NCBI GenBank assembly: GCA_050246315.1
Contig: JBFWWG010000011.1
Coordinates: forward strand, 64,001 to 128,000
Direction of reading: 5' to 3'
Source of the DNA: Nitrospiraceae bacterium
GTDB lineage: Bacteria > Nitrospirota > Nitrospiria > Nitrospirales > Nitrospiraceae
Length of the DNA stretch: 64,000 nt
Shown: positions 37,111 through 64,000 of the stretch, in pieces
How the letters are laid out: every line of letters begins with the position of its first letter
Numbering within the stretch: the stretch's first letter is position 1
The notes under the pieces: model-generated
Told to the model about the DNA's origin: nothing
What the model saw: only the letters and a program-made list of their open reading frames with translations
Databases searched by the model: none
Program-made: the position numbers and the translations under genes

Positions 37111-38697
37111 ATGCCAACTACACCAACGTATCCAGGAGTCTACATCGAAGAGATTCCGAGCGGCGTGCGTACGATCACCGGAGTCGCCACCTCCATCGCC
37201 GCCTTTATTGGTCGAGCACTCAGAGGACCGACCAACGAGCCCATCACCATCAATAGCTTCGGGGATTTCGAACGGACCTTCGGCGGGTTGTGGGTGGGCA
37301 GCAGCCTGGGCTTCGCCGTTCGGGACTTTTACCTGAACGGCGGAGGGCAGGCCGTCATTGTCCGTCTCTACCATGCCGAGACGGGCACAGGGGCCAAACC
37401 GGCGCAGGCGAAACTCACGGCAGATTCCCTCGGGCTCGAGGCCGCCAGCCCTGGAGCCTGGGGCAACAAGTTGCGCGCGCGAGTGGATCACAATACGCGG
37501 CCGGCGCTTCCGGGCGAAGCCGCCGACAGCCTGTTCAATCTGACCGTACGGGACGGAGAGACCGGAGCGATCGAGAGCTTCCGGAACGTCTCGATCACTG
37601 CGGGCCATCCGCGGCAGATCGACAAGGTCCTGCTCAACGAATCCCAACTCGTGCGCATGACCGGCAATCTGCCGGCCGCGCGTCCCGCGAAGAGCAACGA
37701 TCCCGCGGCCGGGAAAGATCCGTGGGAAGACAACACCCCGGCGACCAACTACAAGGTGGCGACAGCCGCCGAAGCCTCGGACGGTGCGGCGTTGACGAAG
37801 GCCGATGATTTCACCCCGGCGAACGCCGAGAGCAACAAGAAGGGGTTGTATGCGCTGGCCAAGGCCGACCTCTTCAATCTCCTCTGCATCCCACCTTATC
37901 TCGCCAGCGGCAATGTGGACACGGGCCTGACTTCGGAAGCGGCGGCCTACTGCGAGCGGCGCCGGGCCATGCTGTTAGTAGATCCTCTCGTCGAGTGGAC
38001 CTCGAAGGATGCGGCCAAGTCCGGCGTGGCGAACATCGGCACGACCAGCAAGAATGCGGCACTCTACTTTCCACGATTGCGTCAGCCGAATGCGCTGAAA
38101 GACAACCAGGTCGAAGATTTCGTGCCCTGCGGCGCCGTCGCCGGGATCTTCGCTAGAACCGACGCGCAACGGGGGGTGTGGAAGGCTCCAGCCGGTTTGG
38201 AGGCGACGCTCGTCGGGGTTCCGGGTCTCAGCGTGCCGTTGAACGATCCCGAAAACGGCGAGCTCAATCCATTGGGCGTCAACTGTCTCCGCGTGATGGC
38301 GCCCGCCGGTCCGTTGGTATGGGGTGCGCGCACGCTGCAGGGCGACGACCGCTTCGCCTCGGAGTGGAAGTATGTGCCGGTTCGGCGCATCGCCCTCTTC
38401 ATCGAAGAAAGCCTGTATCGAGGCACCCAATGGGTAGTCTTCGAGCCGAACGACGCGCCGCTATGGGCGCAGATTCGTCTCAACATCGGAGCCTTCATGC
38501 ACAACCTCTTCAGGCAAGGCGCGTTCCAAGGCCAGACTCCTCAAGAGGCGTACTTCGTCAAGTGCGACAAAGAAACCACGACACAGAACGACATCAATCT
38601 CGGCATCGTGAACATCGTGGTCGGTTTTGCTCCTCTGAAACCGGCCGAGTTCGTCATCATCAAGATTCAGCAGATGGCCGGTCAGATCCAGTCATAA
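37111..38697 (+). CDS. eCIS contractile tail sheath protein (Afp2/3/4-like)
   Basis: YPGVYIEE, RGVWKAPAG, LNPLGVNCLR, VWGARTL, YVPVRR, VFEPN, APLKPAEF. Confidence 0.95.
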   Translation: MPTTPTYPGVYIEEIPSGVRTITGVATSIAAFIGRALRGPTNEPITINSFGDFERTFGGLWVGSSLGFAVRDFYLNGGGQAVIVRLYHAETGTGAKPAQAKLTADSLGLEAASPGAWGNKLRARVDHNTRPALPGEAADSLFNLTVRDGETGAIESFRNVSITAGHPRQIDKVLLNESQLVRMTGNLPAARPAKSNDPAAGKDPWEDNTPATNYKVATAAEASDGAALTKADDFTPANAESNKKGLYALAKADLFNLLCIPPYLASGNVDTGLTSEAAAYCERRRAMLLVDPLVEWTSKDAAKSGVANIGTTSKNAALYFPRLRQPNALKDNQVEDFVPCGAVAGIFARTDAQRGVWKAPAGLEATLVGVPGLSVPLNDPENGELNPLGVNCLRVMAPAGPLVWGARTLQGDDRFASEWKYVPVRRIALFIEESLYRGTQWVVFEPNDAPLWAQIRLNIGAFMHNLFRQGAFQGQTPQEAYFVKCDKETTTQNDINLGIVNIVVGFAPLKPAEFVIIKIQQMAGQIQS

Positions 38698-38709
38698 GGA
38701 GGACGTACG

Positions 38710-63386: not shown

Positions 63387-64000
63387 CGCTCGATGCCGAC
63401 AAACTCTACGCCTTGCTCCCGTCGATCTATCGCATTCGCGATCAGGAGAAAGGAGAGCCGCTCAAGGCCTTCTTGGCCGTGCTCGCGGAGCAGGCCGAGG
63501 TCTTGGAAGAAGATCTGTCCCAGCTCTACGACGATCAGTTTATCGAGACCTGTGCCGAATGGGTCGTGCCCTACCTGGGCGATTTGATCGGGTATCGGCG
63601 GCTACGGGGTGCGTCCTCCTCCGACGATTCGTCGCGGGCCGAGGTGGCGAATACGATTGCCTATCGACGCCGGAAGGGAACGGTGTCGATGGTCGAGCAG
63701 TTGGCCTCGGATGTGACGGGATGGAAGGCGCGGGCGGTGGAATACTTTCAGTATGTCTGCGCGACGCAATATCTGAATCATATCCGGCCGGCCCATCAGG
63801 CGGTGGCCGACTTGCGCCGCCAACGACAGTTGATGTGGTCGCAGACTCCATTCAACTCGCTGCCTCGCACAGTCGATGTACGATGGATCGCAACCGGCCG
63901 AGGCCGGTACAACCTTCCGAATGTCGGTCTGTTCCTGTGGCGGCTCCGCCCCTATCGTGTCGCCAAAGGGACCGCCAAGCTCGTCAAAGAAGGCTGTTTC
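63383..64000 (+). CDS. Baseplate wedge / tail protein I-like (partial, runs off the window)
   Basis: Own translation: MTLDADKLYALLPSIYRIRD...LYDDQFIETCAEWVVPYLGDLIG...RAEVANTIAYRRRKGT; ATGA coupling; absent from ORF track because no stop. Confidence 0.85.
   Translation, partial: MTLDADKLYALLPSIYRIRDQEKGEPLKAFLAVLAEQAEVLEEDLSQLYDDQFIETCAEWVVPYLGDLIGYRRLRGASSSDDSSRAEVANTIAYRRRKGTVSMVEQLASDVTGWKARAVEYFQYVCATQYLNHIRPAHQAVADLRRQRQLMWSQTPFNSLPRTVDVRWIATGRGRYNLPNVGLFLWRLRPYRVAKGTAKLVKEGCF

Follow-up and report, generated by a model that had tools for sequence, protein, structure and literature searches.

A lineage-II contractile injection locus of a Nitrospiraceae bacterium with DUF4157 candidate cargos and a fibre tail that may be cross-linked by an adjacent ATP-grasp pair

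The DNA analysed here, a 64,000-nucleotide stretch of a Nitrospiraceae genome (the window), carries most of an operon that almost certainly encodes an extracellular contractile injection system (eCIS). With moderate confidence we read it as a lineage-II particle that likely loads DUF4157 proteins and has a fibre tail likely cross-linked by an ATP-grasp pair encoded next to it. The eCIS itself belongs to a family that is already well catalogued. The added value lies in a tag at the end of the fibre, beyond the window, which is the most unusual part of the locus and bears on what protease-linked ATP-grasp enzymes with a truncated partner act on, a group whose precursor could not be predicted.

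A first-pass annotation of the window had described a complete-looking eCIS locus, and the tail/ATPase genes, the baseplate genes and the insert between them were all found where it had placed them, on the same strand (+, as are all operon genes given below). The single contractile sheath (37111..38697; PF04984 and PF17482) is followed by the tail tube (38710..39228; PF06841, E 9e-46, and TIGR02241 above cut-off) and a T4 gp26-like baseplate or tail assembly protein (39235..39987; PF12322, barely above cut-off), which had been called a chaperone and occurs in 73 of 80 sheath loci. Then come a fast-evolving, low-complexity ORF that matches no family (39984..40853; identity 92% in G002 and 51% in G003), the Pvc16_N (DUF4255) cap or terminator (40853..42160; PF14065, E 7e-53) and an Afp15-type AAA+ ATPase (42157..44181; PF00004 and PF22977), a likely cargo loader judging from the role of Alg15 in AlgoCIS. 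The baseplate module opens with the tube initiator (54688..55341; PF19266, CIS_tube) and a LysM-like or tail-X wedge protein (55338..55700), assigned by position and a Phage_tail_X match below cut-off (PF05489, E 0.016). The hub of the spike, the gp27-like half of a split Afp8 (55693..56820), was likewise assigned by position, with only a weak VgrG_rel match (E 0.0095) and 59-76% identity in G001 and G014, and it precedes the gp5-like OB spike (56817..57395; PF04717). A PAAR-like tip (57454..57774; PF05488/PF14107, E 1e-4, under the Pfam cut-off), the gp25 wedge (57779..58135; PF04965), two baseplate J proteins (58132..60690 and 60687..63386; both PF04865, with TIGR02243 above cut-off) and a Tail_P2_I wedge or fibre adaptor of 718 aa (63383..65539, L001:1383-3539; PF09684) follow. 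The window ends at 64000, inside the wedge gene, and for parts beyond its end window numbers equal L001 positions plus 62000. The operon is thus not complete within the window, since the fibre and ATP-grasp genes lie beyond it.

The frequent gene overlaps reported earlier were borne out. Twelve of the 27 junctions from the sheath to the last gene, a NarL/LuxR regulator outside the window (L001:8439-9113; PF00196), overlap, in ten cases by 4 nt and in one case each by 1 nt and 8 nt; this count leaves out the gene at 51981..52880, whose start codon is uncertain. A scan for promoters and terminators stayed at chance level (2 vs 3.5; 16 vs 14.2). The LuxR gene lies downstream here and in G001; in G014, L023, L025 and L026 it is found upstream of the sheath. 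A stand-alone receiver-like (REC) protein, a likely regulator with weak NCBIfam response-regulator matches, is encoded at 36577..37014. Most of the close relatives that were examined (G001, G002, G003, G014, L022, L023, L025 and L026) also have the REC gene 5' of the sheath; it was not detected in L024.

All structural genes are homologous to phage tails, as they would be in a prophage remnant or an R-type tailocin, but this reading is in effect refuted. The eCIS core set is present (tube, sheath, gp25, Afp11, spike, LysM and initiator, with LysM and hub recognised by weak matches and position), as are the Afp15 AAA+ ATPase and the Afp16/Pvc16_N cap that an eCIS requires, together with CIS_tube, DUF4157 and DUF6519 proteins. 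Three Pfam families of head and packaging proteins (Terminase_6N, Phage_portal and Phage_capsid) gave no match genome-wide, while control genomes were positive, and no head or packaging genes, which the first-pass annotation had named as pointing to a prophage, lie directly downstream. The second sign it had named, structural genes that group with phages or R-type tailocins, was not seen for the sheath: among solved chains, CIS sheaths come out nearest (E 1e-75 to 1e-38), with far lower scores for pyocin (1e-10) and T4 (1e-6). Moreover, an intact sheath is kept in 4/4 genomes of the genus. The locus also lacks capsid, portal, terminase and TssJLM genes. TssJ, TssL and TssM are found on another contig (C7) as part of a T6SS with TssK, TssA, TssB and TssC, and the eCIS tail might in principle be anchored in the cell via that membrane complex. 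We consider this very improbable, as the C7 locus has its own sheath and the eCIS has a fibre and homologues of Afp11 and Afp16, which are absent from T6SS. Genomes with both an eCIS and a T6SS have been called rare (38/509; PMC6899500).

Two afp11 copies and a split afp8 are the gene content that defines subtypes IIa/IIc (Chen et al. 2019, PMC6899500), and on gene content the locus fits this lineage rather than lineage I. That is, the Afp/PVC/MAC-type eCIS proposed earlier was correctly called an eCIS, but lineage I has a single afp11, an unsplit afp8 and the tape measure afp14, where we found two J genes and a split spike. The Streptomyces-type IId, with a single afp11, an unsplit afp8 and CisA for the fibre, does not match either. 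The lineage-II operon was confirmed as intact, comprising sheath, tube, Pvc16_N, AAA+ ATPase, initiator, split spike, PAAR, gp25, two J proteins and Tail_P2_I. Like IIa/IIc systems (PMC6899500), it combines two Afp11, a split Afp8, PAAR, Afp15 and Afp16, with no tape measure recognised. Unlike them, it holds five DUF4157 genes in one cassette, and its fibre carries a K/E-rich tail and a short motif and is followed by an ATP-grasp pair. Our literature search found no study of a Nitrospira eCIS.

Downstream of the adaptor, where the first-pass annotation had suggested looking for a tail fibre, we found a predicted DUF6519 (eBAP5) tail fibre of 908 aa outside the window (65592-68318, L001:3592-6318; PF20129, E 1.5e-68). 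The order agrees with the eBAP5/DUF6519 fibre and Tail_P2_I adaptor described in PMC12923769. This fibre bears on where the particle acts, which is probably outside the producing cell. A mode of action inside the producer had also been suggested, as in Streptomyces CIS, for instance as cell death set off by stress or phage, in which the flanking caspase, CHAT, TIR and patatin genes would take part. The sheath structures 8BKY and 8BL4, which we take to be of Streptomyces origin, are among the best solved matches, the flanks match PADLOC caspase, TIR and phospholipase effector models, and lysis genes, for which the downstream DNA was to be inspected, were not recognised in the operon (no holin or endolysin). 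The Streptomyces cytoplasmic CIS (PMC12237407) thus resembles our locus in its related sheath and in belonging to lineage II, but it is of subtype IId and has the membrane protein CisA in the fibre's place. Because the 908-aa fibre occupies that position here, and no convincing transmembrane ORF of 40-400 aa was found in 32000-80000, a cytoplasmic mode is disfavoured and we regard it as clearly improbable; the TIR/patatin block, in addition, lies on the other strand. The caspase and CHAT genes were not accepted as part of the system, because among 80 loci they adjoin the eCIS only in G000, G001, G003 and L022, which are closest to one another, with one further caspase match in L100.

Immediately after the fibre, two ATP-grasp proteins are encoded outside the window (68323-70028). 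The second, ATPg2 (L001:7075-8028), is a graspetide-type ligase matching PsnB (E 8.5e-22) and MdnC (9e-18). Its TIGR04187 score of 150 bits is under that model's cut-off of 350, and it stays below all curated graspetide cut-offs. Sequence comparison nevertheless showed that ATPg2 retains the graspetide catalytic residues, namely the catalytic Arg, the D(F/W/Y)R loop and ExN: R203, D222-Y223-R224, E276 and N278 are invariant in 49 sequences, and Arg213 and the DFR loop are essential in PsnB. The first, ATPg1 (L001:6323-7078), gave only E 0.9 in a profile search against PDB sequences, and the fold search settled its identity: the AlphaFold2 model (pLDDT 90.9) matched PruB, AMdnB and MdnB in Foldseek (E 6e-9 to 2e-7). 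As the model is without lid, DYR loop and ExN, ATPg1 is predicted to be an ATP-grasp pseudo-enzyme that has lost the graspetide catalytic residues. The system resembles PsnB, MdnC/MdnB, MyxF/MyxD2, CorB and PruB in fold, in the Arg213 equivalent, in the D(F/Y)R loop and in ExN. Ligases of this type form Lys lactams on repeated cores and have catalytically dead partners; MyxF and CorB do so on KxxE/KxxxD repeats. The characterised enzymes, however, work on short peptides by way of an N-terminal leader. A classical precursor of that kind was rejected here, where the core-like stretch is the C-terminus of a 900-residue structural protein and the conserved motif follows it.

The fibre C-terminus is K/E-rich from about residue 796 and carries FIxxxERP at 874, a motif with four six-frame matches in the whole genome. 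To relate motif and enzymes more broadly, we used metagenomic ATPg1 loci obtained by an alignment-based scan (a single-sequence scan with ATPg1 found nothing). FI...ERP was present on the same strand, at most 450 nt upstream, in 62 of the 64 evaluable loci (55 clusters at 90% identity; 16 of 80 loci had been dropped for having 300 nt or less of upstream DNA), versus none of the 64 in the opposite-strand control, and the two remaining loci carry near variants. ATPg2 lies directly 3' of ATPg1 in 39 of the 41 loci with room. In the reverse direction, the motif's DNA pattern occurred in 11 of 371 genomes of the family and was followed by the ATP-grasp pair in eight of these; the three matches without ATP-grasp genes lie in short or non-KE frames. 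Tag and enzyme pair were thereby shown to co-occur in both directions. Most DUF6519 fibres, though, are without the module, so an eCIS can do without it. Of 20 other fibres, drawn from 49 genomes without an adjacent ATPg1, none had the motif or ATPg1. The eight tagged Nitrospiraceae fibres are related to one another, and an ATPg2-like match was seen at one fibre locus that has no tag (L221).

The hosts of the motif include fibres, tyrosinases and other proteins, and K and E make up 15% and 11% of the tails just before it, as against 1.7% and 2.5% elsewhere in the host proteins. Only F, I, R and P are invariant in the tail alignment, which has a mean column identity of 21% and no fixed register. 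In paralogous loci the motif stands instead at the N-terminus of a PqqD-type protein encoded after the pair (12/12, with Pfam run on the G000 copy only), as would be expected of a portable docking tag. We tentatively propose, with confidence a little short of even, that FIxxxERP is a portable C-terminal docking peptide by which the ligase/pseudo-ligase pair cross-links K/E-rich tails on a range of large proteins that share no ancestry, chiefly eCIS fibres. That the fibre tail is covalently modified at all, we hold to be somewhat likely.

An unlikely alternative use of the motif would be merely to dock the ATP-grasp pair, as a chaperone, as a tether or for the modification of another particle or target protein, with the K/E stretch as an unmodified charged linker. 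The paralogous loci, which carry the motif on the PqqD protein and not on the presumed substrate, would agree with this, as would the widely varying K/E content (few K/E motifs in the hosts L145, L157, L161 and L166). But K is about 9-fold and E about 4-fold enriched just before the motif on unrelated hosts, graspetide lactams have K as their acceptor and E as their donor, and the PqqD loci encode a short K/E/D peptide of their own.

Related enzymes have been catalogued. In the supplement of Carter et al. 2026 (PMC13097080), 15 of 50 rows for graspetide group 32 contain FIxxx[ELQ]RP, mostly after K/E-rich sequence, and two rows resemble ATPg1 fragments by eye; the entries are short automatic ORFs, and we found no characterisation of group 32 there. 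ATP-grasp branch 8 of Makarova et al. 2022 (PMC8939145) typically includes a truncated inactive ATP-grasp, as here, and is protease-linked, with no precursor found. Our tentative link to both groups draws on the motif, the ATPg1-like supplement fragments and the description of the truncated partner. Unlike in either group, the tag here ends large proteins, often eCIS fibres, and recurs on the PqqD protein. These groups also bear on a further possibility, that the tag is a graspetide precursor fused to the fibre; once cyclised, it would be detached by the upstream caspase, by a cargo zincin or by a protease of the host. The free peptide could act, for example, as a protease inhibitor, with the fibre as its carrier only. 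In seven of the 15 motif-bearing supplement rows the sequence starts with Met and may represent a free precursor, a link to proteases is on record for group 32 and branch 8 loci, and microviridin-type graspetides are known to inhibit proteases. Yet the tail alignment has no conserved cleavage motif, no linker separates the tail from the last fibre segment that looks folded, the operon is without a transporter, and caspase and CHAT are not adjacent in L023, L025, L026 and G014; we judge such release improbable.

In the cross-linking mechanism that we favour, the released particle would bind its target via the fibre. FIxxxERP, as a 'follower' peptide at the C-terminus, would dock an ATPg1-ATPg2 complex, in which ATPg2 would activate Glu/Asp carboxylates with ATP and join them to Lys side chains. 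The resulting Lys-Glu/Asp lactam rings could form within one chain or between fibre chains and might turn the tail into a rigid, protease-resistant tip. If this is right, it would be a post-translational cross-link on the fibre of a contractile machine, and the tag would be a short, genetically encoded signal for protein lactamisation. On the portable-tag reading, graspetide chemistry would more generally modify whole proteins, here locking or arming the tip with which an injection machine binds its receptor, and the orphan ATP-grasp branch would have its missing precursors in the proteins encoded next to it.

The roughly 10-kb insert between the tail/ATPase and baseplate modules was confirmed (44178-54635). 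It comprises five DUF4157 genes and four others and shows no marked GC anomaly (0.58-0.64). Two of the others come first, a small conserved protein 3' of the ATPase (44178..44540; no family, matches in 26 of 80 sheath loci) and a 143-aa protein without a family match (44566..44997; found in congeners only, 80-99% identity in G001 and G002). All five PF13699 matches of the genome fall in the insert. E1 (45019..46635), E2 (46670..48253), E3 (48447..49748) and E5 (53604..54635) each combine a Cys-rich N-terminal domain (NTD) with DUF4157 and a C-domain of their own. That of E1 is unannotated, with a beta-strand-like pattern, 82% identity in G001 and no ESM Atlas match of at least 0.9 (best 0.76). 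E2 ends in a domain with a second HExxH (HELHH), a predicted zinc peptidase without a match among 80 cargo C-domains, E3 in an M35-like metallopeptidase (HESVH; PF14521, E 1.5e-4, below cut-off) that is 98% identical in G002, and E5 in a short unannotated domain. E4 (49930..51984) is without the NTD common to the others and joins DUF4157 to annexin-like repeats and a zincin-like C-domain (HEVGH). Pfam gave nothing for the C-domains of E1, E2 and the end of E4, and only E 0.08 for that of E5.

The proposed effector island is real and strain-variable, but its place is the norm for the clade, with DUF4157 genes after the ATPase in 41 of 57 related loci. At the same place G001 has four such genes, G002 at least three and G014 one. 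The sheath of G002 is 100% identical, yet its first two cargo C-domains differ, and 80 cargo C-domains fall into 51 clusters; N-terminal parts are thus conserved while C-domains are exchanged at one locus, as in polymorphic cargos. We think it likely that the particle loads DUF4157 candidate cargo from a strain-variable cassette. The order of NTD, DUF4157 and variable C-domain, with an NTD common to one system's cargos, is also that of AlgoCIS Cgo1/Cgo2 and of DUF4157 EATs (10.64898/2026.05.27.728243; PMC8213781; PMC11297309), and annexin is among the eCIS domains already reported there. Loading of cargo depends on the NTD in AlgoCIS (10.64898/2026.05.27.728243), and by analogy the Cys-rich N-terminus of E1, E2, E3 and E5 may be what the AAA+ ATPase recognises as the signal for loading. 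In contrast to those cargos, the NTD here has a four-cysteine motif, present in 53 of 87 related cargos, and E4 lacks it and is partnered with two other genes.

The first of these (51981..52880, start uncertain by some tens of bases) encodes a protein with a predicted ABBA (PT-barrel) prenyltransferase fold. Its AlphaFold2 model (pLDDT 95.4) matched PriB, DMATS1 and IptA best in Foldseek (E 1e-8, TM 0.6-0.73), and K/R/Y residues invariant across 53 homologues are candidates for the basic/tyrosine diphosphate shield of such enzymes. The second is a CpXC protein (52877..53593; PF14353). The order E4, prenyltransferase-fold gene, CpXC is kept in 8/8 genomes that have the prenyltransferase-fold gene, and the cassette hints at a second modifying enzyme, one acting on cargo.

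The kin of the host genome are Nitrospiraceae, and the host is likely a relative of Nitrospira, but the suggestion of a probable nitrifier found no support: neither amoA nor nxrA was found, as AMO and NxrA-sized queries had no match in this assembly, in which genes present in several copies may have failed to assemble. Three NxrA-sized matches are present in the congener G001, and a fragment at a contig edge in G002. A DMSO-family gene on contig C13 was considered as NxrA and set aside as formate-dehydrogenase-like by eye. On the other strand, 9 kb beyond the fibre, an amidase is encoded. As 57 out of 371 genomes from the host family have DUF6519 fibres, such particles may matter in activated-sludge communities. 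Twenty rows from eight studies contain the stretch, mostly sludge and wastewater RNA libraries. The four RNA-library runs examined hold contigs that span the locus and its flanks alike and are thus not informative on transcription; the even depth of one 11-kb contig suggests that it is DNA-derived.

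The window is C11:64001-128000 of a genome of 4.39 Mb in 30 contigs. Pfam and NCBIfam searches matched the sheath, tube, gp26-like protein, Pvc16_N cap, AAA+ ATPase and CIS_tube initiator, as well as the spike, PAAR-like tip, gp25, two baseplate J proteins and Tail_P2_I. This bears out the eCIS structural set of the first-pass annotation, with the LysM-like and hub genes assigned from weak matches and position. Genes overlap at 12 of 27 junctions (one gene with an uncertain start left out), and two Afp11 copies with a split Afp8 would fit subtype IIa or IIc by gene content (PMC6899500, partial text). 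Capsid, terminase and portal genes had been reported absent from the window; Terminase_6N, Phage_portal and Phage_capsid had no match genome-wide, and the same families were matched in 4-5 of 14 control genomes. Compared with solved structures, the sheath resembled CIS sheaths (E 1e-75 to 1e-38) far ahead of pyocin (1e-10) and T4 (1e-6), which speaks against the phage or tailocin kinship named as the counter-case. We regard a prophage as virtually out of the question. The genome also carries a separate classical T6SS on contig C7 (L107:689-13568; TssB, C, A, ImpE, TagF, TssM, L, K, J, FHA), a coexistence reported for only 38 of 509 eCIS strains (PMC6899500, partial text). TssJLM are encoded there; T6SS-type anchoring of the particle is very improbable.

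Beyond the window end (numbering continued), the operon proceeds on the + strand through a DUF6519 fibre (65592-68318) and two ATP-grasp genes, ATPg1 and ATPg2 (68323-70028), to a LuxR regulator gene. Of the tail fibre and lysis genes proposed for a downstream search, the fibre was thus found; no lysis genes were recognised within the operon. DUF6519 plus Tail_P2_I is also the eBAP5 architecture (PMC12923769, partial text). As first flagged, without the tagged fibre, the eCIS is ordinary; new at this locus is the tagged fibre with its adjoining ATP-grasp pair. The fibre C-terminus is K/E-rich from about residue 796 and bears the motif FIKPEERP at 874. ATPg1 starts 4 nt past the fibre stop and overlaps ATPg2 by 4 nt. 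The nearest characterised relatives of ATPg2 are PsnB and MdnC. Arg213 and the DFR loop are essential in PsnB (10.1101/2021.03.09.434688, partial text), and ATPg2 retains their equivalents (placed via a 20-residue offset) plus E276/N278, all invariant among 49 homologues. The predicted fold of ATPg1 resembles PruB/AMdnB/MdnB (pLDDT 90.9). Since lid, DYR loop and ExN are missing, ATPg1 is a predicted pseudo-enzyme.

An alignment search with ATPg1 gave 328 metagenomic loci; among the best 80, we evaluated those whose upstream DNA exceeded 300 nt, 64 in all (55 clusters at 90%, 43 at 70%). FI...ERP lay at most 450 nt upstream on the same strand in 62 of the 64 and on the opposite strand in none, against a background of 4 six-frame matches across the whole genome under study. 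ATPg2 came next after ATPg1 in 39/41 loci with room, and eCIS linkage was visible in 17/64 (13/22 where upstream DNA reached at least 4 kb). The motif-bearing hosts scanned, 46 of 54, comprised 14 DUF6519, 4 Ig-rich, 2 tyrosinase, 1 lysyl oxidase and 1 Kelch protein and 24 without family; residues 95 to 20 before the motif were 15% K and 11% E, elsewhere in the hosts 1.7% and 2.5%. Conversely, the motif DNA pattern occurred in 11 of 371 family genomes, followed by the ATP-grasp pair in 8; the other three matches fell in frames without a K/E tail. ATPg1 adjoins the fibre in 8 of 57 fibre-bearing genomes, and all eight fibres, which are kin rather than independent, carry the motif. Among 20 of the other 49, chosen for lacking ATPg1, motif and ATPg1 were absent (0/20 each) and one had an ATPg2-like match; no ATP-grasp pair was seen after the fibre of the relative G014. 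K/E tail and motif 5' of the pair were also noticed on tyrosinases and a lysyl-oxidase-like protein (L197, L207, L123, L181; L123 tyrosinase-like by eye only). Short DUF6519 proteins (550-570 aa) with hydrophobic, membrane-like ends at L220, L221, L235 and L236 are possible membrane-anchored CIS variants in Nitrospiraceae.

A second, paralogous ATP-grasp pair lies on contig C14 (L269:325-3400), with a PqqD protein, a 44-aa K/E/D peptide and an HPr-kinase-like gene. There, as at 11 further loci, a PqqD-type protein 3' of the pair starts with the variant FI[TS]x[DE]LRP (Pfam assignment for the C14 copy only), and a short K/E/D peptide follows this protein in 9 of the 12. In the simplest reading, the motif docks the enzyme pair, via an adaptor in the PqqD system and directly on the substrate in the fibre system. 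The 44-aa peptide resembles group-39 rows of PMC13097080 (partial text); many Nitrospiraceae also have ATPg1-like matches of lower strength.

The motif was already in a published table: by our count, 15 of 50 group-32 rows of Carter 2026 bear it, of which 8 are fragments that lack Met and 7 are short ORFs that begin with it, and the accessible text leaves it unremarked, though supplementary figures may show it (PMC13097080). This motif points to a possible kinship with group 32, named after its diverse proteases in the same partial text. Branch 8 of Makarova 2022 combines peptidases and a truncated inactive ATP-grasp, with no predictable precursor (PMC8939145, partial text); our locus resembles this description in its predicted inactive partner. 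For MyxF/MyxD2 (PMC12848669, partial text) and CorB (PMC13097080, partial text), both Lys lactams on KxxE/KxxxD repeats and inactive partners have been demonstrated. By analogy, the ATPg1-ATPg2 pair would bind the motif and form Lys-Glu/Asp lactams within or between fibre tails. That the tail is instead set free as a graspetide seems unlikely to us, and docking without modification equally so. No paper was found pairing 'ATP-grasp' with 'contractile injection', and the titles listed held nothing on fused fibre substrates.

All five DUF4157 matches of the genome (E1-E5, 45019-54635) lie between ATPase and initiator, where the first-pass annotation had placed an effector island. This position is the rule among related loci, a DUF4157 gene being found 3' of the ATPase in 41 of the 57 sheath loci that extend to it. 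DUF4157 is an established marker of eCIS cargo (PMC8213781, PMC11297309, partial texts), and the cassette belongs to this known kind of cargo set. Four of the genes share an N-part of about 200 residues (73-78% DNA identity over 300 nt) with a CxCG...CxxC motif, which E4 lacks and which recurs in 53/87 collected DUF4157 proteins; in the presumed loading signal (45091-45170 and equivalents) it is a possible zinc site. AlgoCIS cargo loading requires the NTD, not DUF4157 (bioRxiv 2026.05.27.728243, partial text). The C-domains of E1 and E5 (short) are unannotated, E2 has HELHH, E3 is M35-like below cut-off, and E4 is annexin-like (E 4e-4) with HEVGH. That of E1 (45640-46632) gave no family or Atlas match, is 82% conserved in the relative G001, and alternates hydrophobic residues over its last ~150 positions, by eye suggestive of a membrane beta-barrel. 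The same position holds four cargo genes in G001, at least three in G002 and one in G014. Of the C-domains, E1's recurs in G001 and E3's in G002, and no others are shared among these, even though G002 has a 100% identical sheath. The 80 C-domains among the 87 proteins formed 51 clusters. Contigs from three runs skip E1 via the common N-part, perhaps because strains differ or because the repeat was mis-assembled. DUF4157 genes also lie within fibre regions of other Nitrospiraceae eCIS (L219, L223, L229, L232-L234, L237, L238), a second cargo position.

Gene 51981-52880 had no Pfam match; its model (pLDDT 95.4, 53 sequences) resembles the ABBA prenyltransferases PriB, DMATS1 and IptA (E about 1e-8), a fold to which Atlas also weakly pointed. 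In all 8 genomes having the gene (371 family genomes searched), it is flanked by an E4 homologue and CpXC, and another cargo-type N-part follows the trio. The Cys-rich NTD is missing from all E4 homologues (9 sequences, two apparently the same). Tentatively, E4, CpXC or a target molecule might be prenylated by the enzyme; alternatively, the pair might substitute for the absent loading signal. No paper was found combining any two of CpXC, prenyltransferase and DUF4157.

The genes, cassette exchange, tag-enzyme coupling and catalytic residue pattern are observed; we infer that REC and LuxR would govern the operon, the ATPase would feed NTD-bearing cargos into the tube, and released particles, attached via the fibre, would inject domains most of which are peptidase-like. 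Action inside the producing cytoplasm is somewhat less probable than the two alternatives for the tail; the fibre occupies the place that CisA has in the Streptomyces CIS (PMC12237407, partial text).

Among the matches listed, the five nearest named sheaths (91-95%) come from Nitrospira or Nitrospiraceae MAGs, and the remaining 75 (53-80%) spread over phyla and archaea. The sheath is present in 4/4 genomes of the genus, some match in 12/61 genomes searched, and DUF6519 in 57/371 family genomes. AMO had no match in the genome, with control genomes silent too. An NxrA-sized protein of a relative matched only NarG in the assembly; congener G001 had three NxrA-sized matches. A full-length NarG (L020, C2:179637-183311) scores above the cut-off of TIGR01580, and G002 has a match of similar size; NxrA itself was not detected in the assembly. 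The nitrifier called probable in the first-pass annotation gained no support from this assembly.

Directly 5' of the REC gene (32307-36361) lie a caspase (Peptidase_C14) and a single 1038-aa protein combining alpha/beta-hydrolase, M17_N-like and CHAT parts; their adjacency to the eCIS is confined to the closest relatives. Most genes at positions 1-32000 have housekeeping roles (PhoH, FtsY, glycosyltransferases, alginate-export porin, cytochrome c peroxidase), with an EVE-domain protein at 22244-22741. On the - strand beside the eCIS, a block of TIR, patatin, TPR-S, DUF4062-TPR and amidase-SH3 genes (L001:9199-16473; window numbering 71199-78473) was matched by the PADLOC models for TIR and phospholipase and is probably a defence or conflict island.
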